Source: Patescibacteria group bacterium
GTDB taxonomy: Bacteria; Patescibacteriota; Minisyncoccia; Phycocordibacterales; Phycocordibacteraceae
NCBI GenBank assembly: GCA_029260935.1
Contig: JAJDCJ010000015.1
Span: 1 to 62,068 of the forward strand
Length of the DNA: 62,068 bases
Direction of reading: 5' to 3'
Made by a program: the position numbers and the translations under genes. Below are positions 1 to 37,463 of this stretch, piece by piece. Position 1 is the first letter of the stretch. The number at the start of each line of letters is the position of its first letter. The notes below the pieces were generated by a model. That model was not told the origin of the DNA. It saw only the letters and a program-made list of their open reading frames with translations, and did no database searches.

Positions 1-117
1 CGCTCAGCCCGCTCGAGTACTCGCGGGTCCTCGCCCACCTGCCTGCCTCTTTTCTTTATTTTTTAACATCATCCCCCCGAAAACCGTTCTCTGAAGTGGA
101 AGCAGGCAGAGTGGGGC
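1..117. repeat. Left arm of long perfect inverted repeat IR-A (partner 3075-3191); outer end cut by window edge
   Basis: Bases 1-117 are the exact reverse complement of 3075-3191 (117/117 by eye). The match stops at 118/3074 on the inner side and runs off the window on the outer side. Contains the palindrome CGAGTACTCG (14-23) and the 9-mers CATCCCCCC (70-78) and AAAACCGTT (80-88), which are also present in IR-B. Confidence 0.9.
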
Positions 118-199
118 TCGGAAAAACAACGCCTCATATACCAGGCAATTGAGGTGTTTGGTGCCTAGAGTGCATGAACTCCACCGCTCGGCCATTCGG

Positions 200-221
200 C
201 CTCGGGCATTTCCGCTAGGGC
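200..221 (+). repeat. 22-nt motif CCTCGGGCATTTCCGCTAGGGC, forward copy
   Basis: A perfect inverted partner lies at 477-498. A 2-mismatch copy lies inside the recombinase CDS at 5244-5265. Confidence 0.85.
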
Positions 222-306
222 TACTCGCACCTAGTTTTCTAGGAGCACCGCTACTCCTCGCCAGTGTCGCCTGCGGGCTCCCTGTCTTCGGGCGGCACAC
301 TTTTTT

Positions 307-331
307 GGGGGAAGGACGGCATCCTTCCCCC
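307..331. other. Strong GC hairpin (10-bp perfect stem GGGGGAAGGA / TCCTTCCCCC, 5-nt loop)
   Basis: Read directly from the sequence. Lies in the GC-rich noncoding block 118-613. Confidence 0.8.
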
Positions 332-476
332 AGCGCCTCCTCGGCTCGGCAGGGCTCGCCCAACCGTCGGCGCCAACCCCCAACCTCGTTTTCATATCCA
401 TTCGCTCGTAATGTCGCTTCCGCTTCTAAAATCAGTATTTCAAAACAACAACGGCGCTCATCCATGCACACTGGCC

Positions 477-498
477 GCCCTAGCGGAAATGCCCGAGG
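477..498 (-). repeat. 22-nt motif CCTCGGGCATTTCCGCTAGGGC, reverse copy
   Basis: Exact reverse complement of 200-221. With its flanks (about 45 nt) it resembles recombinase codons RSSGISARASVYG at 5240-5278. Confidence 0.85.
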
Positions 499-540
499 AC
501 CGGAACTGCAAAACTACAGAAAACACCACTCACTGTTCAT

Positions 541-569
541 GTGCTTGCCCCACCCACCGTGCGCGCACT
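541..569 (+). repeat. 29/30-nt direct repeat GTGCTTGCCCCACCC(A/TC)CCGTGCGCGCACT, copy 1
   Basis: Near-identical copy at 3363-3392 (1 substitution plus a 1-nt indel). Confidence 0.8.
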
Positions 570-613
570 ACTCCCACACCAATGAAAGTGGAAAAGTTGG
601 TGTGTGGCTCCCG

Positions 614-763
614 TTAGATTTTCTTTTTCAACTTATCAAAATACACGTCGAGTGACAGTTCTGCCATTTTATATAAATCGCTTCTAAGTTCCTCAACTTG
701 TTCGTCTGTCATATCTAGAGAGTCTTTACCAAGATGTTGACGGCACTGTTGGATAGAGAGCAT
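614..763 (-). CDS. Hypothetical small protein, 49 aa (MLSIQQCRQHLGKDSLDMTDEQVEELRSDLYKMAELSLDVYFDKLKKKI)
   Basis: Hand-translated ATG..TAA ORF below the 60-aa cutoff. Its composition is helical and protein-like, unlike the GC-rich block next to it. No homolog recognised. Confidence 0.35.
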   Translation of the reverse strand: MLSIQQCRQHLGKDSLDMTDEQVEELRSDLYKMAELSLDVYFDKLKKKI

Positions 764-791
764 AAATTAATGTTATCACTCGGTACCATAA

Positions 792-1043
792 CTAGACAGT
801 CGAGTCTGACTTGTCTTTCTTTAAAATTGACTTAAAGAAAATGTTTACCAAAAGATAGGGTAAGCCAAAGTAAAGAATAAGAGCAATAAAAAATTCGATT
901 GCCGCTCGTAAAAGATCACTACTAAAAGCATCAAAAACGGCGTATAAGAAAAGAAAAACACCAGTCCATTTGAAAGATTTCAAAAGCCACGCTAAGTATT
1001 CAAACTTTTTTCCTTCTTTATTTGCCATGTAAAAAGTATACAC
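792..1043 (-). CDS. Small membrane protein (2 predicted TM helices)
   Basis: ORF track; hydrophobic stretches GVFLFLYAVFDAF and FFIALILYFGLPYLLVNIFF. Alternative ATG at 1028. Confidence 0.5.
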   Translation of the reverse strand: MYTFYMANKEGKKFEYLAWLLKSFKWTGVFLFLYAVFDAFSSDLLRAAIEFFIALILYFGLPYLLVNIFFKSILKKDKSDSTV

Positions 1044-1054
1044 TAGCTTTACTT

Positions 1055-1330
1055 TTAGTTTCCAGGACTATTCCAAGAATCATGTGGAATACCAATACCA
1101 TCTGAACCAAAAAGAAATTCATTGAAAGGTCCTGCCCATTGCCAATTAAATAGCCCGCTTATAATCGTCCAGACCATAAGAGCTATAAATACAACCAAAA
1201 AAATCTTATCCCACTTGCTTGAGGTGGTCCACCACCTTTTTATACTCTTCTTTATGCTCCTGAATACAGTCGATTCATCTTCAGGCACACCAAGAGTTTT
1301 ATTTTTTGGAGGTATAAATAATGATTTCAT
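1055..1330 (-). CDS. Small membrane protein (1 TM)
   Basis: ORF track 1055..1357. The internal ATG at 1330 (MKSLFIPP...) avoids overlap with the upstream gene, whose stop is at 1332. TM segment: IFLVVFIALMVWTIISGLF. Confidence 0.5.
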   Translation of the reverse strand: MKSLFIPPKNKTLGVPEDESTVFRSIKKSIKRWWTTSSKWDKIFLVVFIALMVWTIISGLFNWQWAGPFNEFLFGSDGIGIPHDSWNSPGN

Positions 1331-1331
1331 G

Positions 1332-1628
1332 TTATTTTTTGTATAAGTAAAAGCCAATAATTGCCGCTGCTACGACATCTAAAATTTGCCAAGTTTCTCG
1401 TGCGAAATAGAATGGGAATAGTGGATTGAAGAGTATTGCCGTAATTCCAAATATCCACGTCCAAGTGAATTTCTTACTCTCATAGCTTGTATACGCTATG
1501 TAAATAGCTACAGCAGTGACTACCCATCTTAATAGTTGAAAATAGAAATAGGTCCAATCTCCGAAAGCTCCTAAAAGAAAAACGATCGCAAGAATTAAAT
1601 ACCAATTTTGTTTAAGAAAGTTTTTCAT
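1332..1628 (-). CDS. Small polytopic membrane protein (3-4 TM); resembles a widespread uncharacterised small-TM family
   Basis: ORF track. The C-terminal pattern FNPLFPFYFARETWQILDVVAAAI recalls a conserved FNP..P...R..W...D motif family. This is from memory and unverified. Confidence 0.55.
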   Translation of the reverse strand: MKNFLKQNWYLILAIVFLLGAFGDWTYFYFQLLRWVVTAVAIYIAYTSYESKKFTWTWIFGITAILFNPLFPFYFARETWQILDVVAAAIIGFYLYKK

Positions 1629-1843
1629 ATACCACTTCTATGTAAGCGTGCTTGATAATTCTCAAAATCGTTCTCACTGAATGGTTTTGATAGACTTGAC
1701 AATCCTTTTCCTTTCGAGTTCAAGTATCGATCAGAGCAGTCGCTCTTAATATTTGATGGTCTGACTTGAAACCAGTAAAAGGAAAATCCTAATATTATTA
1801 GTATTATAAAAATAATATATTTGTATTGTTTTAATTTCTCCAT
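1625..1843 (-). CDS. Small membrane-anchored protein (N-terminal TM)
   Basis: ORF track; YIIFIILIILGFSFYWF. Overlaps the downstream gene by 4 nt, which suggests an operon. Confidence 0.45.
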   Translation of the reverse strand: MEKLKQYKYIIFIILIILGFSFYWFQVRPSNIKSDCSDRYLNSKGKGLSSLSKPFSENDFENYQARLHRSGI

Positions 1844-1892
1844 ATTTTCAGCATATCATTTATGGTTCCATTGAGTGTGGTATACATAAAGT

Positions 1893-2096
1893 ATGGGCTT
1901 TATTATCATAGGAGTAATTGGAATCGTTCTATCAGCAATATTGACGCAGCACTTTGTAAAAAAGAACGGACTACCCACTGAAATGACAGAACAACTTCCT
2001 GGAACAGGGGTTATTCCTAAGTGGGTGTCATTAATAAATCTAGCTGGTTGGGCTTTAATTGTTTGGGGTGTTATTAGTTTTTTTATTGGTAGTTAA
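1893..2096 (+). CDS. Small membrane protein (2 TM)
   Basis: ORF track; two hydrophobic helices. Confidence 0.5.
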   Translation: MGFIIIGVIGIVLSAILTQHFVKKNGLPTEMTEQLPGTGVIPKWVSLINLAGWALIVWGVISFFIGS

Positions 2097-2294
2097 TCTA
2101 TTATATCAAAACCCCGTCTCAATTAAATAACGAACAATTCCAATATTTATAACGCACTAAAAGAACAGAAGAAGTATTTAGAAAAAATAGAAACCAAACT
2201 TATTTATTTTTGGTTCAGGAGATATTCTACGTCACGATTCTTGGCAAAGCCCATGAAACTAACAGTACACTTCTAATTCTTGTATACTTACTTC

Positions 2295-2495
2295 ATGACC
2301 CAATCAGAATATATTGCAGCTACGGTTTCTTATTTCCTCCCCTTTTTAATAGCCCCGATAATTGTCGGGGCTATATTCTCGTTAGTAGCTTGGTTACTCA
2401 CAAAAAAACGTTCAACTAAGAAATCTATCATTTGGTTTGTAGTAGGGTTTCTACTAGCAGCCTTTGTCATCTTTTATGGGTTAAGTCTAAAATAG
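2295..2495 (+). CDS. Small membrane protein (2 TM)
   Basis: ORF track 2280..2495. First ATG at 2295, preceded by TATACT (2283-2288). The overlapping 2210..2419 frame looks less protein-like. Confidence 0.5.
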   Translation: MTQSEYIAATVSYFLPFLIAPIIVGAIFSLVAWLLTKKRSTKKSIIWFVVGFLLAAFVIFYGLSLK

Positions 2496-2513
2496 AACTT
2501 CATATAATTTAAA

Positions 2514-2729
2514 CTAAAACGACCCTTTAATCCAACCAATAAAAGCAGCTAGTAGGAGTACAATAATTAAGAATAGCCCGCCCTTCCACGTATGCAGCCT
2601 TCTGTTTTCTTTGTATAGATAAATAAAATCACGTTTTTCGTTTTGAGATTGTACTGCATCTTCCCAACGATCCTCCGCGTCCAATTGTTCGCTTTCTTCC
2701 TGAATTGCTTTCCAGTCAATTTTACCCAT
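2514..2729 (-). CDS. Small C-terminally anchored membrane protein
   Basis: ORF track. Acidic N-terminal half followed by the TM segment GGLFLIIVLLLAAFIGWI. Confidence 0.45.
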   Translation of the reverse strand: MGKIDWKAIQEESEQLDAEDRWEDAVQSQNEKRDFIYLYKENRRLHTWKGGLFLIIVLLLAAFIGWIKGSF

Positions 2730-3031
2730 TAAGACTACTTATACCAGAACATCCAACTCCTGTATACTCAATCCAATATCTATACGGAAGGCTGAAAGTT
2801 CGGAAAGCCACACTTCGGGGTCACAAATTTTCTTAGGGCTTAGTTAAGCCGCTTGTATAAAAATACCCTACTAACACATTAAAAAAGCGCGTATCTTTTA
2901 CAAGCTTATTGAATCTATTTTTAAGATTTTTTCCTTTTTCGTTTGTTACAAATGTTAAATCAGTTGTCATATTATTTCAAAAGCTTGTCTATTCAAATAA
3001 TCGCATAAAAACAGCTAAAAAGCACTATCAA

Positions 3032-3059
3032 AAACGGCTCAACTTGGGTTGAGCCGTTT
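3032..3059. terminator. Perfect 12-bp hairpin AAACGGCTCAAC-TTGG-GTTGAGCCGTTT
   Basis: Read directly from the sequence. A/T-flanked and symmetric. Shares the stem core AAACGGCTCA/TGAGCCGTTT with the hairpin at 7962-7991. Confidence 0.45.
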
Positions 3060-3074
3060 AGGGAACAAAAACCC

Positions 3075-3191
3075 GCCCCACTCTGCCTGCTTCCACTTCA
3101 GAGAACGGTTTTCGGGGGGATGATGTTAAAAAATAAAGAAAAGAGGCAGGCAGGTGGGCGAGGACCCGCGAGTACTCGAGCGGGCTGAGCG
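3075..3191. repeat. Right arm of IR-A
   Basis: Exact reverse complement of 1-117. Confidence 0.9.
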
Positions 3192-3257
3192 CCGAGTCCG
3201 CGAGGCGCGATTAGCGCGGGTTCTGTTGGAAATAGGTTCGAGCTAGGGCGTAAAGAC

Positions 3258-3350
3258 GAGCCCAAAGTAGGTTTGATTCAGAATTTCCAGAATTTTTTCT
3301 GATGGCGCGAAGCGCTTCATAGGGGGGATGAGCGGAACCAGAAACGGTTT
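3258..3350. repeat. Left arm of perfect 93-bp inverted repeat IR-B
   Basis: Exact reverse complement of 5577-5669 (93/93 by eye). Mismatches flank it immediately at 3257/5670 and 3351/5576. Confidence 0.9.
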
Positions 3351-3362
3351 AGAGAACTAGCA

Positions 3363-3392
3363 GTGCTTGCCCCACCCTCCCGTGCGCGCACT
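3363..3392 (+). repeat. Direct repeat copy 2 of 541-569
   Basis: See 541-569. Sits 12 bp inside the IR-B left arm. Confidence 0.8.
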
Positions 3393-3432
3393 GAAAACTT
3401 TCGCCGAGTATTGGTGCTCGTCGAATGACTCC

Positions 3433-4155
3433 CTATTTTAATCCGTACTGAGTTTTTATTTTCTCCATTCTTTCTTTTTCATGTTCCTGAAGGGCTCTTA
3501 TAACACGATCCACCGCAAAGGCAGGTTCTTTGTCATAGTTTGAATACATGGTAGATGCAAAATCTAGTTTTAAAATAAATAAATCAATTGTGTCCTGAAT
3601 GATTTTTAATAATGTTCTAATTTGTAATCCAGTAATTTTCACCTCTCCTTTTTTTAAATCATCATGGGCCAAAAATTTATCTCTGTATATTTTTAGATTT
3701 TTGATTACTTTTTGATTATTTTTTAAACGACGTCGAATCTTTTTGAGATCTTCAAGCGTAAGTTCCTTATAGCCACTCATAAGTTCGGGAATAAAATCTC
3801 GTCCCTGTTGATATTTAAAGAATTCCTTTTCTGAAAAAGAACTTAAGTTTTCTTGAGCAAAGTCTAAAAGCAAACCTATAGTTAAAGATTGTTTTCGGTT
3901 ACCTTCATCAAAAAACTTAGCTATTTCTATAAAAAAATAAACTCTGGCGGCCTCTTGAATTGATGTAAAAAAGTAAAGATGTTGTCCATATGTTTTCACA
4001 TTGGCTTCTGCTTTTCTTTTCCCAACTACATTAGGCGCAGCTATTTTCCTTAGCTGTTCATATATCCTAAAAGCTGCAAGAGTATGCAGATAGCGGGTTT
4101 GCAAGCTCTTTGTCCAATCAAATACTTCCTTAAAATTGTGCTGATGAGAATGCAT
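3433..4155 (-). CDS. HEPN-domain, abortive-infection-like protein (AbiU2-like guess)
   Basis: 240-aa all-helical ORF with the R-x5-H motif RDKFLAH, which fits the HEPN Rx4-6H signature. Divergent from the recombinase. Family assignment was not searched. Confidence 0.5.
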   Translation of the reverse strand: MHSHQHNFKEVFDWTKSLQTRYLHTLAAFRIYEQLRKIAAPNVVGKRKAEANVKTYGQHLYFFTSIQEAARVYFFIEIAKFFDEGNRKQSLTIGLLLDFAQENLSSFSEKEFFKYQQGRDFIPELMSGYKELTLEDLKKIRRRLKNNQKVIKNLKIYRDKFLAHDDLKKGEVKITGLQIRTLLKIIQDTIDLFILKLDFASTMYSNYDKEPAFAVDRVIRALQEHEKERMEKIKTQYGLK

Positions 4156-4171
4156 GGAAGTGAACGTATCG

Positions 4172-4177
4172 TATAAT
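4172..4177 (+). promoter_or_regulatory. TATAAT -10 box 6 nt upstream of the recombinase ATG 4184
   Basis: Exact consensus hexamer. The spacing implies a leaderless or near-leaderless transcript. Confidence 0.35.
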
Positions 4178-4183
4178 ACTATT

Positions 4184-5725
4184 ATGCGCTTTTTTCTTTA
4201 CGTCCGCAAAAGTACTGATAAGGAGGATATGCAAGTTTTGTCTATTGAAGCACAGCTTGTAGAACTGCGAGCATTGGCGAGAAAAGAGGGGATTGAGATT
4301 TCTCAAGAGTTTGTAGAAAAACAGTCCGCTAAACAACCGGGCCGTCCTATATTTAATGAAATGATGGCGCGAATACAAAAAGGCGAAGCACAGGGCATTG
4401 TGTGTTGGAAAATTGATCGCTTGGCACGTAACCCCGTCGACGGGGGACAAATACAGTGGCTTTTGCAAAGTGGCATTATTGCCCACATACAGACACATGA
4501 CCGTGCATACTACCCAACAGACAACGTGCTCATGATGTCTGTTGAGTTTGGTATGGCGAATCAGTTTATTCGAGACCTTTCTGTAAATACAGCACGCGGA
4601 CTCCGTGCCAAAGCACGACAAGGACACTTTCCCGGAACGGCACCAGTGGGATATATAAATAATCCGCGCACCAAGACAATTGCTGTTGATAGAAAGAAGT
4701 CGCCAATCATTCGTGAAGCGTTTGCACTCTACGCGCAAGGCAATTCGCGTTTTGAAGATATCGGACAGTTTCTGTTTTCAAATGGAATTAAAAGTTTATA
4801 TGGAAATCGTATACAGAAAGACCGAGTGAAATTTATCTTAAGCAATACGTTTTATTACGGCCCTTTCCAATACGGTGGGGAATGGTACGAAGGAAAACAT
4901 ACTCCAATCATTGATAGAGTCTTATTTGAAAAAGTACAAAAAGTCTTAGTAAGACGTGGACGTCGACAGTCGACAAAAAAAGAACCGCAAGCGTTGTGCG
5001 GATTACTGAAGTGTGGGGAGTGTGGCATGAGTATAACTGCCGAAGCAAAAACAAAAACACAGAAGAACGGAAACGTGCATCAGTATGTGTATTACCGATG
5101 TACTAAGAAAGGGAAGGTCTGTTCACAACCGTTTATACGAGAAGAAGAATTAACGGCTCAGTTGAAACGAGCCGTTTCTGACTTCGCCTTGCCGAAAGAG
5201 TGGGCAGAAGAAATGTTCACATTATCAGAGAAGGACGAACGGTCCTCAGGAATTTCCGCTAGGGCGTCCGTGTATGGCGCACGTGAGAAACTGGTAGAAG
5301 CTGATACAAAATTATCACGCCTTACTGACCTCTATGTTGACCAAGATATTGAGCGCGACGCTTATCTATCGAAGCGTCGCGCTTTAGTGGATGAAAAGAG
5401 GAAACTAAATGAGCAGATTGCTCGTTTAGAGGCCGATGCACATAGTTGGCTCGAACCTCTTCGTGAGTGGATACAGGAGGCTTCAATCCTAGAGGGAATA
5501 GCAAAAAGCACTACCGTAGAGACACAAAAGGTCACCGTGCAAAATATCTTCGGCTCGAACCTGTTTTTAAAGAACAAAACCGTTTCTGGTTCCGCTCATC
5601 CCCCCTATGAAGCGCTTCGCGCCATCAGAAAAAATTCTGGAAATTCTGAATCAAACCTACTTTGGGCTCCGCGGGTAGGACTCGAACCTACAACCAACTC
5701 CTTACACGTTATCCCTTATTACTAA
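4184..5725 (+). CDS. Large serine recombinase
   Basis: N-terminus FFLYVRKSTDKEDMQVLSIEAQ (catalytic Ser context) and CWKIDRLARN (resolvase domain). Recombinase domain, Zn ribbon CGLLKCGECG...YYRCTKK, then a long coiled coil. The track start at 4154 is also possible. The last ~50 codons run through IR-B and antisense into the tRNA. Confidence 0.85.
   Translation: MRFFLYVRKSTDKEDMQVLSIEAQLVELRALARKEGIEISQEFVEKQSAKQPGRPIFNEMMARIQKGEAQGIVCWKIDRLARNPVDGGQIQWLLQSGIIAHIQTHDRAYYPTDNVLMMSVEFGMANQFIRDLSVNTARGLRAKARQGHFPGTAPVGYINNPRTKTIAVDRKKSPIIREAFALYAQGNSRFEDIGQFLFSNGIKSLYGNRIQKDRVKFILSNTFYYGPFQYGGEWYEGKHTPIIDRVLFEKVQKVLVRRGRRQSTKKEPQALCGLLKCGECGMSITAEAKTKTQKNGNVHQYVYYRCTKKGKVCSQPFIREEELTAQLKRAVSDFALPKEWAEEMFTLSEKDERSSGISARASVYGAREKLVEADTKLSRLTDLYVDQDIERDAYLSKRRALVDEKRKLNEQIARLEADAHSWLEPLREWIQEASILEGIAKSTTVETQKVTVQNIFGSNLFLKNKTVSGSAHPPYEALRAIRKNSGNSESNLLWAPRVGLEPTTNSLHVIPYY
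5577..5669. repeat. Right arm of IR-B
   Basis: Exact reverse complement of 3258-3350. Contains the palindrome GAAGCGCTTC (5609-5618), AAAACCGTT (5576-5584) and CATCCCCCC (5597-5605). Confidence 0.9.
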
Positions 5726-5961
5726 GAGCGTGGACTATATCATCATCCGGTCTGGATGCGAGGCGCTTCCCCCATAAAAATGGAGTACTCCCTTTCGGGA
5801 TAGTCTCTGAACCTTTCCCGACATTTTGTTAGGACTTGGCTGCTGATTACCCTCGGCATGACCCGTTCGGGTTTCCAGCAATTCACCTCGTTTTTCAATC
5901 TGAATTCCTTCAGAAAGCTGCCTTTTGACAGGGAGCTGCTCTACCATTGAGCTACCGCGGA
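5667..5961 (-). tRNA. Intron-containing tRNA; exons 5961-5928 and 5704-5667; spliced anticodon most likely GUU (Asn)
   Basis: Minus-strand read: acceptor UCCGCGG / CCGCGGA (7 bp), D arm GCUC-AAUGGUA-GAGC, anticodon stem GCUCC/GGAGU, T arm GUAGG-UUCGAGU-CCUAC, discriminator G, no encoded CCA. The two halves are 223 nt apart. A 5' exon ending in U35 and an intron ending in G give the loop CU-GUU-AA. U1-A72 plus G73 fit bacterial tRNA-Asn. Confidence 0.8.
5705..5927 (-). ncRNA. Group I intron (IC3-like, 223 nt, no ORF) in the tRNA anticodon loop
   Basis: Contains the catalytic-core strings GUUCAGAGACUA and GAUAUAGUCC (P7/P7' as in the Tetrahymena and cyanobacterial tRNA-Leu introns). GNRA-capped hairpins CUGAA-GGAA-UUCAG and UCCC-GAAA-GGGA. 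Possible P1 CUGU/GCAG with U.G at the 5' splice site, and a terminal G before the 3' exon. Confidence 0.75.
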
Positions 5962-5992
5962 ATATATTGTTCTGAAAGAACATCTTCGCGGT

Positions 5993-6173
5993 GCTCAAGA
6001 ATTGAGCTACTACCGGAGTGACTGAGGATCACAGGAAAGCAGTTCTTTCATATGATCGAAGTCACGAACGGGAGCAAGGATGGTTTTTCTTAAAACCAGA
6101 CTTACCGCGGAATGTATTCTGGATAGAGAATTATTCCTTCCGCGAGAGCTCAAGTTTGTGCACCGCGGAATGT
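5993..6173 (-). repeat. Degenerate partial copies of the tRNA 5' end (ACCGCGGAAT-type) upstream of the tRNA
   Basis: ACCGCGGAATRT occurs at 5954-5965 (the true 5' end), 6104-6115 and 6162-6173. ATTGAGCTAC-TACCGGA at 6001-6017 mimics ATTGAGCTACCGCGGA. GCTCAAG occurs at 5993 and 6147. Confidence 0.6.
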
Positions 6174-6328
6174 GTCTATTCTACTTAAAAAAACCACCCC
6201 TGCCAAGTGTCCAAGTGATGATATAATGGAGTATAAGGAAGTGCGCGTATGGATTCGTGGCGCAGATCATATCTATGTGTTCCTGTAGTTCCTGTTATAC
6301 ATGACCACTTCAATACAAATGTTTTAGT

Positions 6329-6823
6329 ATGAGTACCTCTGTCTTTACCCTCGCCAGCGATGTCTTTAATGACGGGGGCACTATTCCCACTGAATATACC
6401 TGTGACGGGGAGGGAATACACCCGCCTTTGAGTATCTCGGGAGTACCGACTGGCACAAAAAGCATGGTGTTATTAGTGGATGATCCGGACATACCAAAAG
6501 ACCTTAAAAAGAAGCGTGGTATTGAATGTTTTGATCACTGGGTGGTGTACAACATTCCAAAAGATACAACTGAAATTGAAGAAGGGGAGTCAGTCGGGAA
6601 AGAAGGTTTGAACTCAGGCGGTACGCGTGGGTACGTTGGTCCATGTCCACCGCCTGAATATGAACCAACAGCACACCGGTATTTCTTTCGGCTCTATGCT
6701 CTCTCCAAACAAATGCGTTTTGCAAAACCGCCAACACGCACGGAAGTGCTCACTGCTTTGGAATCGTGTGTTTTAGCAGAGACCCAACTTATGGGTATCT
6801 ATGACCGCAGTGGTCATAGATAA
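6329..6823 (+). CDS. YbhB/YbcL-family PEBP (Raf kinase inhibitor-like) protein
   Basis: Motifs GGTIPTEYTCDGEG, LVDDPD, HWVVYNIP, GPCPP, HRYFFRLYAL. Confidence 0.85.
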   Translation: MSTSVFTLASDVFNDGGTIPTEYTCDGEGIHPPLSISGVPTGTKSMVLLVDDPDIPKDLKKKRGIECFDHWVVYNIPKDTTEIEEGESVGKEGLNSGGTRGYVGPCPPPEYEPTAHRYFFRLYALSKQMRFAKPPTRTEVLTALESCVLAETQLMGIYDRSGHR

Positions 6824-6871
6824 TTTTTAGTAGCTAAAATCATACGCATCTGCGTGATACAATATAATCGT

Positions 6872-7108
6872 ATGTTTACATTATACGTTGAGACCGGCTG
6901 CCCTTATTGCGCCAAAGTATTACAAACCATTGATGAGTTGGGAATCTCAGTTGAGCAGAAAAATATTGCTGACTCTGGTGTTTCAGAAGAGCTTATTGCC
7001 CGAGGAGGGAAGCGTATGGTTCCTTATTTAGTAGATTCTGATCGCGATACTGAAATGTATGAGTCAGATGATATTGTCGCCTACCTCAAAGAGCACCACA
7101 GCGCGTAA
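6872..7108 (+). CDS. Glutaredoxin-like small redox protein
   Basis: CPYC active site at the N-terminus of a ~78-aa thioredoxin-fold-sized ORF. The track start GTG 6854 is an alternative. Confidence 0.7.
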   Translation: MFTLYVETGCPYCAKVLQTIDELGISVEQKNIADSGVSEELIARGGKRMVPYLVDSDRDTEMYESDDIVAYLKEHHSA

Positions 7109-7113
7109 CTACT

Positions 7114-7344
7114 ATGTATGTTCGGGTAGATGTGACGGCAGCGGCAAAGCGCGAGCGCTTTGCCGCTGTTTCTATAGACGCCTTCACTGTCTCAGTAAAA
7201 GAGCCGGCAGAGCGCAACATGGCAAACAAACGCGTTGTACAGTTGGTAGCCGAACATTTTAATCTACCACCAAGGGCAGTGCGGATTATCAGTGGACACC
7301 ACTCGCCCCGTAAAATTCTCTCAGTTACCCAAGCAAAAGGGTAA
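7114..7344 (+). CDS. DUF167/YggU-family protein
   Basis: 76 aa. Pattern V.V...AKR....V..D.F.V.V.EP.E...AN..V..L.A..F.....V.I.SGH.S..K typical of YggU. Confidence 0.65.
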   Translation: MYVRVDVTAAAKRERFAAVSIDAFTVSVKEPAERNMANKRVVQLVAEHFNLPPRAVRIISGHHSPRKILSVTQAKG

Positions 7345-7358
7345 GATATACTACATAT

Positions 7359-7724
7359 ATGGAAATAAAAACAAAAGTCACCGGTTCAGTGGTTATGAGT
7401 GATGAACTGGCAGTATATATAACTAATAAACTTGAAAAAATCACCATCTTTCTAAAAAAAGACCCTACTGCTATTTTTGAAGTTGAAGTAGGAACGACCG
7501 CAGGCGGTCAGCGCACCGGTGATGTGTATCGCGCGGAAATCCACGCAACGTTCGCCGGCGGTGATGTATATGCAGAGTCAACGGCAGCAAACCTCCACCT
7601 TGCAATTGACCGCACAATAAAAGAAGCACGCCGTGAGTTTAAAAAAAGACGCGGCAAAAACAATGATGCGATGCGAAAAGGAGCAATACAGGTGAAAGAC
7701 TTCTTCCGCAATTTTGGGAAATAA
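7359..7724 (+). CDS. hpf: Ribosome hibernation promoting factor / RaiA family (short form)
   Basis: 121 aa. IT..L..Y...KL.K....YRAEI...F.GG.VYAES....L..AID....K..R.. pattern. Confidence 0.75.
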   Translation: MEIKTKVTGSVVMSDELAVYITNKLEKITIFLKKDPTAIFEVEVGTTAGGQRTGDVYRAEIHATFAGGDVYAESTAANLHLAIDRTIKEARREFKKRRGKNNDAMRKGAIQVKDFFRNFGK

Positions 7725-7734
7725 AGGACGCTCC

Positions 7735-7798
7735 GGGCGATGATAGTTTCAGAACCCTGCCTGCCCTCCTGCGCGAGTTTCTGAAACTGTCATCGCCC
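7735..7798. other. Long imperfect hairpin (20-bp arms, 1 mismatch, 24-nt GC-rich loop)
   Basis: GGGCGATGATAGTTTCAGAA ... TTCTGAAACTGTCATCGCCC, read directly from the sequence. Part of a ~300-nt ORF-free spacer. Confidence 0.6.
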
Positions 7799-7961
7799 TT
7801 CCACTAAGGTGTAGAAACTCCGTGTTCTGCGGCCGCCAAAATCATCACTACCCTACGTTAGAGTTGGAGGAATTGTGTGCTTGGCTAGGCTGTCTAACTA
7901 CCCAAACAGGCCTAGCAAAACAGTGATTTTGTAGACTGAGCGATACTTGCTTCGCTAAGAT

Positions 7962-7991
7962 AAACGGCTCATTCTTAAGAATGAGCCGTTT
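7962..7991. terminator. Bidirectional hairpin between convergent hpf and fmt
   Basis: Perfect palindrome AAACGGCTCATTCTT/AAGAATGAGCCGTTT. Confidence 0.55.
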
Positions 7992-36859: not shown

Positions 36860-36931
36860 GGCCCCATCGTCTAACGGTTAGGACACAAGCTTCTCAAGCT
36901 TGTAATCGGAGTTCGATTCTCCGTGGGGTCA
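36860..36931 (+). tRNA. tRNA-Glu (anticodon CUC)
   Basis: Acceptor GGCCCCA/TGGGGTC, D arm GTCT-AACGGTTA-GGAC, anticodon arm CAAGC-TTCTCAA-GCTTG, T arm GGAGT-TCGATTC-TCCGT... read by hand; no encoded CCA. Confidence 0.85.
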
Positions 36932-36941
36932 CAGATATGTT

Positions 36942-36969: not shown

Positions 36970-37096
36970 TTACTTATCTGCATTCCCTACGGGGAATCGA
37001 AGAGAGGCTACGCGAAGCCTGTGAGTATACACAGTTGTAGCCGACGGGGTCGCGTCGCTTGGTGTTTTGTGAGGAACGAAACAAAACACTTAGCAA

Positions 37097-37146
37097 AGGT
37101 GACCGATGCGTGCGAGCGAAGCGAAGACACTTCTCCGTGGGGTCAC
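37097..37146 (+). repeat. Direct repeat unit ending in a 16-nt copy of the tRNA-Glu 3' end (TTCTCCGTGGGGTCAC = 36917-36932)
   Basis: 37131-37146 is identical to 36917-36932. 37097-37138 is repeated at 37421-37463 with a 1-nt insertion. Confidence 0.85.
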
Positions 37147-37327: not shown

Positions 37328-37420
37328 GGCCGGAAGCATAGTTTTACCAGCAGGCAAAACAGCTGAGGCGGGGCCGGCGACCAAAACTTTACGACGGTAA
37401 AGTTTTGAGTTGTGGGCCAC

Positions 37421-37463
37421 AGGTGACCGATGCGTGCGAGCGTAAGCGAAGACACTTCTCCGT
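37421..37463 (+). repeat. Second copy of the 42-nt direct repeat, ending in a truncated tRNA-Glu 3' end (TTCTCCGT)
   Basis: AGGTGACCGATGCGTGCGAGCGTAAGCGAAGACACTTCTCCGT. Confidence 0.85.

Follow-up and report, generated by a model that had tools for sequence, protein, structure and literature searches.

A tRNA-Asn gene with a probable group I intron, and the adjoining recombinase cassette, in a Patescibacteria contig

The tRNA gene and its intron

The window analyzed here is the whole 62,068-nt stretch of contig JAJDCJ010000015.1 from a Patescibacteria group bacterium (assembly GCA_029260935.1). The window is chromosomal, with fmt, def, priA, murA, and mreB present. On its minus strand, positions 5667-5961 very probably represent a transfer RNA (tRNA) gene, tRNA-Asn(GUU), interrupted between U35 and U36 by a 223-nt group I intron that contains no open reading frame (ORF). 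A split gene of this kind had been proposed from the sequence alone (the original prediction), and its exon coordinates and 223-nt spacing were all found to be correct when checked by script on the minus strand. The gene is composed of the following parts.

5928-5961, minus strand: 5′ exon of tRNA-Asn, nucleotides 1-35 (UCCGCGG-UA-GCUC-AAUGGUA-GAGC-A-GCUCC-CUGU, from sequence reading and script), with the acceptor strand UCCGCGG, the D arm, the 5′ anticodon stem GCUCC, and loop nucleotides C32, U33, G34, and U35
5705-5927, minus strand: predicted group I intron, 223 nt, no ORF (Rfam Intron_gpI); ends placed from the U35·G wobble and the terminal guanosine (ω-G), backed by 49 homologues
5667-5704, minus strand: 3′ exon of tRNA-Asn (UAA-GGAGU-UGGUU-GUAGG-UUCGAGU-CCUAC-CCGCGGA-G, from sequence reading and script), with U36, A37, and A38, the 3′ anticodon stem GGAGU, the variable loop UGGUU, the T arm, the acceptor strand CCGCGGA, and G73

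Joined together, the two exons make a canonical tRNA whose acceptor stem is paired at 7/7 positions, and the form joined after U35 was recognized by ARAGORN as tRNA-Asn(gtt). CCA is absent from the gene, the genomic sequence after G73 being GCCCA. The interruption by a group I intron was confirmed by the Rfam scan, in which RF00028 (Intron_gpI) matched positions 5712-5941 of the minus strand over the full model (positions 1-253) with 81.4 bits (gathering score, 50; E = 3.9e-19). The conserved P7 and P7′ strands noticed in the original prediction were present as GUUCAGAGACUA at 5812-5801 and GAUAUAGUCC at 5741-5732. A Logan contig (run SRR15505513) was 100% identical across positions 5640-7987, indicating that the sequence was recovered in a second assembly.

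The fold was predicted with RNAalifold from 26 aligned members of the class. The anticodon stem, P1, P2, P3, P4, P5, P6/6a, P8, and P9 were recovered, with compensatory changes in 36 of the 51 pairs, and the window intron retains every invariant core position of the alignment. The predicted elements are as follows.

5918-5931, minus strand: P1, CUGUC/AAAA loop/GGCAG, formed by exon C32-U35 and intron C1; the U35·G7 wobble marks the 5′ splice site
5899-5914, minus strand: P2 hairpin UCUGAA-GGAA-UUCAGA with a GNRA loop; all 6 pairs covary (RNAalifold)
5884-5890, minus strand: P3 5′ strand CGAGGUG, pairing with 5759-5765; compensatory changes in 3 of 7 pairs
5841-5880, minus strand: P4-P5 domain, with P4 UGCUGG/UCAGCA (alignment columns 71-76/114-119, RNAalifold), J4/5 AAA, P5 CCC/GGG (columns 80-81/109-110) with a small apical stem, and J5/4 UAA
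5811-5840, minus strand: P6/P6a hairpin (columns 120-130/158-167); compensatory changes in 6 of 8 pairs
5801-5806, minus strand: P7 5′ strand AGACUA, the guanosine-binding helix, within AGAGACUA; matches the Rfam consensus
5789-5800 and 5770-5785, minus strand: hairpins UCCC-GAAA-GGGA and CUCCAU-UUUU-AUGGGG between P7 and P3′, P7.1/P7.2-like
5759-5765, minus strand: P3 3′ strand CGCCUCG (RNAalifold)
5744-5758, minus strand: P8 hairpin CAUCC-AGACC-GGAUG (columns 236-240/263-267)
5732-5743, minus strand: J8/7 and P7 3′ strand, AUGAUAUAGUCC; nearly invariant in the alignment and matching the Rfam consensus
5733-5737, minus strand: P7 3′ strand UAGUC
5713-5728, minus strand: P9 hairpin CUCUUA-GUAA-UAAGGG with a GNRA loop (columns 283-289/294-300); compensatory changes in 6 of 7 pairs
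5705, minus strand: ω-G, the final intron nucleotide, directly before U36

The P7 pairing never varies across the alignment, and its support is sequence conservation, not covariation; AGAGACUA was invariant in 26 of 26 aligned introns. The P1 register taken from the Rfam alignment places no U·G wobble at a splice site and was replaced by the register backed by covariation. Where two GNRA-capped hairpins had been noticed before, three are present: P2 (GGAA), P7.1 (GAAA), and P9 (GUAA). The two hairpins between P7 and P3′ amount to a 33-nt insertion relative to the Rfam model. Helices are absent from this position in subgroup IC3, the cyanobacterial tRNA-Leu class to which the intron had been assigned. 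Judged by structural inspection rather than by formal subgroup classification, the predicted architecture therefore appears to be IA-like and P7.1/P7.2 bearing, and the IC3 assignment was not upheld.

The order recombinase, tRNA (with intron), glutaredoxin, YggU, S30AE, fmt, def, murA, mreB is common to the window and a complete Patescibacteria genome, CP174360.1, and a similar gene order was found at another locus (L058). This shared synteny indicates that the intron-bearing tRNA-Asn gene is a long-standing resident of the locus. The syntenic tRNA-Asn gene of CP174360.1 (L046:1644-2268, minus strand) has a longer intron of about 550 nt, which contains near P1/P2 an ORF resembling an HNH-type endonuclease. 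The Pfam HNH match is weak (E = 0.0024), and a CxxC...CANCHxxLH motif was recognized by eye. This ORF suggests present or past mobility of the intron family.

Upstream of the tRNA-Asn gene, the 5′ end of the tRNA is partly repeated twice, at 5992-6010 and 6103-6118. One corresponds to the D-arm segment (84% identical over 19 nt) and the other to the acceptor 5′ strand with 7 upstream nucleotides (94% identical over 16 nt). The copies are colinear and about 92 nt apart; they may be the remains of a duplicate or reflect duplication of the promoter region.

Splicing and the anticodon

From membership in the group I family, we infer a two-step transesterification, initiated by guanosine triphosphate, that would join U35 to U36. 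In the precursor, C32-U35 and the first intron base would pair with the guide GGCAG to form P1, leaving the U35·G7 wobble at the splice site. Exogenous guanosine bound in P7 would attack after U35. The ω-G at 5705 would next take the same site, and the freed 3′-OH of U35 would attack before U36, giving the loop CU-GUU-AA. The anticodon stem is proposed to keep the exons together, which is the job of P10, because no P10 could be drawn.

The predicted fold, the U·G wobble, the ω-G, and the intact exons are all borne out by the sequence and its comparison with homologues. Several points weigh against the view that the locus is a tRNA-Asn gene spliced in this way. P1, at 5 bp, is short, and attempts to pair the 3′ exon in a P10 gave nothing convincing. 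The long recombinase ORF runs across this exon on the opposite strand, and a repeat takes in the last 3 nt of the exon. A second placement of the intron, after U33 with ω-G at 5707, is also compatible with the U and G requirements and is the one preferred by ARAGORN, which yields Thr(tgt). Splicing itself is presumed by analogy with the family.

Decay of the intron or the gene to a relic, with an unspliced or unexpressed precursor and another tRNA-Asn serving the cell, is unlikely. Such decay would be in keeping with the adjoining mobile cassette and with the partial tRNA 5′-end copies just upstream. In addition, the analysis covered the window, and a further tRNA-Asn gene may lie elsewhere in the genome. 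All core helices and invariant positions are intact, however, both exons are perfect, with the 7/7 acceptor stem, and the syntenic locus in related reduced genomes also has the intron. Studies of Candidate Phyla Radiation (CPR) genomes moreover report some tRNAs known only as group I intron-containing genes (PMC8172020).

The choice between Asn and Thr depends on the splice site. The rule of a U at the end of the 5′ exon and a G at the end of the intron is satisfied by two placements. Splicing after U35 (ω-G at 5705) would give the loop CU-GUU-AA, read as Asn; splicing after U33 (ω-G at 5707) would give CU-UGU-AA, a tRNA-Thr(UGU) in the "Thr.2Ug" setting. The latter is the call made by ARAGORN when introns are allowed: the locus was called tRNA-Thr(tgt) with a 223-nt intron, and 22 of 50 class genes were labeled Thr by the same option. 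The seed alignment of Williams (bioRxiv 2020, 10.1101/2020.01.27.920355) holds Pam37.Asn.4Ug, Asp.4Ug, Tyr.4Ug, and Thr.2Ug, and its Thr.2Ug seed (Pgr210) has the same cuguc/GGCAG P1.

The two placements were compared across homologous split genes. One genome per species was scanned for loci in which a T arm follows the intron core, giving at least 120 loci. The comparison set (n = 50) consisted of the window and the 49 of these loci whose loop setting, CUGU/.../UAA, agrees with it. Near the start of the intron, a GCAG guide was present in 48 of the 50, pairing C32 with G, U33 with A, G34 with C, and U35 with G as a wobble. In the window, the guide lies at intron nucleotides 7-10, as previously stated, within a P1 that is actually 5 bp long (CUGUC/GGCAG, AAAA loop). 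The pair beside the wobble, between the first intron base and the base 5′ of GCAG, was formed in 44 of these 48 genes and occurred as A-U (18), C-G (7), G-C (11), G-U (5), and U-A (3). This covariation fixes the P1 register and indicates that U35 is the wobble U; U33, the wobble position that the Thr placement would need, forms a Watson-Crick pair with A. A G immediately precedes UAA in 50/50 genes. The G two positions before it, required by the Thr placement, was present in 38 and missing in 12, in which Asn is the only possible reading.

The tRNA body points the same way. U1-A72 and G73 are features of tRNA-Asn and not of tRNA-Thr, which in bacteria carries G1-C72 with A or U as residue 73. 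In 50/50 genes, U1-A72 and G73 were found together with an acceptor stem paired at every position. The spliced body was also closest to annotated tRNA-Asn genes: when it was compared by BLAST with annotated phage genomes, nearly all of the annotated genes in the best 40 matches were tRNA-Asn or tRNA-Asx, with one tRNA-Thr. The comparison with the 49 homologous split genes thus gives good support to a predicted splice site after U35, and splicing after U33 to a tRNA-Thr is very unlikely. The U35 site, the ω-G at 5705, the loop CU-GUU-AA, and the Asn identity given in the original prediction were all retained. That the region is protein coding, with an incidental likeness to RNA, has a negligible probability: both the ORF at 5735-5998 (minus strand) and the recombinase tail (plus strand) are open across it, but the covariance-model match (E = 4e-19) and the covarying helices speak for RNA, the former ORF overlies the RNA entirely, as had been anticipated, and has no Pfam match, and the tail (..RVGLEPTT..) is the antisense of the T arm and is conserved elsewhere only alongside a tRNA.

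Class membership and annotation

Group I introns have been mapped in about 80,000 bacterial genomes by Williams (bioRxiv 2020, 10.1101/2020.01.27.920355), who extended the four classical tRNA settings to 21, Asn.4Ug included. In a global alignment, the window intron was identical to the seed Pam37.Asn.4Ug at 166 of 226 positions. Both interrupt tRNA-Asn GUU after the fourth nucleotide of the anticodon loop (U35/U36), and they share the U before the intron, the ω-G, and a core that has hairpins between P7 and P3′. They differ in length (223 nt in the window versus about 273 nt), in that the window intron lacks the extra hairpins of Pam37 after P2 and has a tight P1 with a 4-nt loop, and in the host, which is here another, CPR-type genome. 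The scan of species-representative genomes gave at least 49 further Asn.4Ug genes, with introns of 211-335 nt, in Patescibacteria/CPR, Acidobacteriota, Nitrospirota, Cyanobacteriota, Elusimicrobia, Margulisiibacteriota, and others. The gene in the window is therefore a member of a common class that was already catalogued in 2020, and it is not novel. The earlier descriptions of the Asn host and its 35/36 site as unusual, and of the 223-nt length as minimal, are therefore not supported.

The nearest BLAST matches of the intron core were to introns of phage genes (DNA polymerase genes of Bacillus phages, and Alteromonas and Synechococcus phages), at 74-80% identity over 85-135 nt. Hairpins at the position between P7 and P3′ are seen in the Williams seed alignment (10.1101/2020.01.27.920355) in Asn.4Ug, Phe.2Ug, Lys.2Ug, Leu.1Ug, and transfer-messenger RNA (tmRNA) introns, so that the tmRNA introns share the P7.1/P7.2 position with the window intron. 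The phage and tmRNA introns differ in that they interrupt protein genes or the tmRNA T-loop, often with homing endonuclease genes, whereas the window intron has no ORF.

The likeness to the classical IC3 tRNA introns is of another kind. These occur in cyanobacterial and plastid tRNA-Leu(UAA), cyanobacterial tRNA-fMet, Azoarcus tRNA-Ile(CAU), and Agrobacterium tRNA-Arg(CCU). The window intron resembles them in its anticodon-loop site, a length of about 200-250 nt, the absence of an ORF, the GNRA-capped P2 and P9, and the anticodon stem holding the exons. It differs from them in the P7.1/P7.2-like hairpins, which they lack, and in the insertion point, which is 35/36 in the window but 34/35 in Leu and 36/37 in Ile and Arg (Leu.3Ug, Ile2.5Ug, and Arg.5Ug of Williams).

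The same scan also gave, among the matches listed, about 30 tRNA genes in which the anticodon is CAU and an intron follows loop nucleotide 5 (CUCAU/...g/AA). These were mostly from Gammaproteobacteria (Lysobacter, Luteimonas, and Steroidobacteraceae) and were mislabeled by ARAGORN as Gln(ctg) or Arg(ccg). A few split genes for Leu(UAA), Phe(GAA), and Tyr(GUA) were found as well.

The value of the finding lies in annotation, and knowledge of group I introns is unchanged by it. With default settings, ARAGORN reported nothing at the tRNA-Asn locus and only a tRNA-Glu elsewhere in the window. The earlier warning that automatic annotation could miss or miscall this gene was thus justified, since the default run misses it and the intron mode says Thr. 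tRNAscan-SE is, according to its authors, not designed for the detection of group I introns (PMC8450103), and a CPR genome-finishing study has described tRNAs hidden by group I introns (PMC8172020). Such errors distort checks of the tRNA complement, completeness estimates, and codon-usage inferences for CPR genomes. The call can be resolved by a simple rule: a GCAG guide with the U·G wobble, then ω-G directly before UAA. The locus adds a further case in which protein synthesis in a reduced genome may rely on a ribozyme. If this gene were the sole tRNA-Asn of a reduced genome, all decoding of Asn would depend on ribozyme splicing.

The recombinase cassette

The cassette beside the tRNA gene has the following features.

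4154-5725, plus strand: large serine recombinase ORF, 523 amino acids, convergent with the tRNA; Pfam Resolvase (PF00239, 2e-22), Recombinase (PF07508, 1e-12), and Zn_ribbon_recom (PF13408, 2e-10)
5577-5669, no strand: right arm of a perfect inverted repeat of 93 nt; the outermost 3 nt coincide with G71, A72, and G73 of the tRNA, and the arm encodes recombinase residues 476-505
3258-3350, no strand: left arm of the same 93-nt inverted repeat, enclosing with the right arm the AbiU2 gene and the recombinase gene
3433-4155, minus strand: AbiU2 (Pfam E = 2.7e-14)
3213-3257, plus strand: conserved left flank of the recombinase element, with the T-loop-like GGUUCGAGC at 3235-3243; the same flank occurs in about 40 related elements at different tRNAs

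The last 20 or so codons of the recombinase (...WAPRVGLEPTTNSLHVIPYY) read the tRNA 3′ exon and the end of the intron in antisense, and this tail matches the scan locus L014 only through the tRNA sequence. No direct repeat of the tRNA 3′ end, as in a classical island attR, was found in positions 1-5600, where only inverted copies occur. Exact-protein look-ups of the recombinase, AbiU2, and DUF6804 ORFs gave no match, and a contig was obtained with the PEBP gene only. A third T-loop-like sequence, AAAAACAGGTTCGAGCC, lies at 5545-5567 (minus strand) in the recombinase ORF, just inside the right arm. It encodes the invariant recombinase motif G-S-N-L-F, so that the stretch may be a DNA site as well as coding sequence.

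A metagenome scan gave at least 578 relatives of the recombinase, and the layout was counted in the best 80 loci (L122-L201). An inverted repeat with its right arm overlapping the recombinase 3′ end was present in 61 of these. The arms of related loci measure 44-242 nt (median, 130) and are 75-100% identical, many of them nearly perfect. A convergent tRNA gene abutted the right arm at 38 loci, representing 22 different anticodons, and introns were found in only 3 of those tRNAs. In 34 of the 80 loci, the recombinase followed the left arm without intervening cargo, and in one (L126), the tRNA lay on the opposite side. The same layout was found in CP174360.1 (L046:66-1672), with its own 93-nt repeat and a recombinase only 40% identical to that of the window. 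Across the family, the outer edge of the repeat coincides with the final nucleotides, discriminator and CCA, of a tRNA that can belong to nearly any isotype. The adjacency of recombinase and tRNA noted in the original prediction is thus real but has no connection to the intron, as the 22 anticodons and the 3 introns in 38 tRNAs indicate; it is clearly a property of the recombinase element family.

The left flank is conserved whatever the tRNA and consists of a GC hairpin, a T-run, and then TTTTTGATAAAATARGTTCGAGC-N6-GTATAAATA. It can be read as a terminator plus promoter and also as a mimic of the T-loop. The mimic begins 24 nt from the repeat edge, compared with 19-20 nt for the real T-loop. 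The flank motif was also considered as a remnant of a second recombinase gene, a possibility that was rejected since the order of motif and repeat is reversed relative to the real gene.

The recombinase resembles the large serine recombinases known as phage-type serine integrases in its Resolvase, Recombinase, and zinc ribbon domains, in its position at the end of a tRNA gene, and in its AbiU2 cargo. The cassette differs from them in being flanked by long inverted, not direct, repeats. The outer edge of the repeat is formed by the last nucleotides of the tRNA, and the other flank is a conserved T-loop-like sequence. A prophage integrase is not favored, as the family is rare in viral contigs (6 distant relatives); it is widespread, mostly in groundwater and CPR-type metagenomes. 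The repeats were also considered as the attL and attR sites that a serine integrase would produce from a palindromic attP. This arrangement was rejected because it does not agree with the junction dinucleotides and because the left flank, being conserved at different tRNAs, is not host sequence.

The cassette could be a segment that inverts, a mobile element with terminal inverted repeats at its ends, or an unusual att arrangement of a serine integrase. No relevant description came from a literature search on elements in Patescibacteria that combine a serine recombinase, a tRNA, and inverted repeats. Tentatively, and with considerable doubt, the cassette may be an undescribed invertible or mobile element specific for tRNA ends, whose recombinase would read the real T arm on one side and its mimic on the other. 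The cassette touching the tRNA, not the intron, is probably the novel part of the locus. Its architecture makes it the more unusual object of the two, and it may deserve a study of its own.

A second perfect inverted repeat, of 117 nt, is located at 1-117 and 3075-3191 and encloses small ORFs, including one for a DUF6804 protein (1332-1628). Its left arm begins at the first base of the window and may extend past it. A second repeat pair abutting the first was also present in four related loci (L163, L164, L165, and L174). Positions 100-620 are richer in GC and contain long ORFs on both strands with no Pfam match. A 22-nt motif, CCTCGGGCATTTCCGCTAGGGC, occurs at 200-221 and, inverted, at 477-498, with a 91% identical copy inside the recombinase gene at 5244-5265. 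Farther away, a 46-nt direct repeat (37094-37138 and 37418-37463; 96% identical) lies 160-530 nt downstream of tRNA-Glu(CUC) (36860-36932), which is a frequent neighbor of this recombinase family in other genomes.

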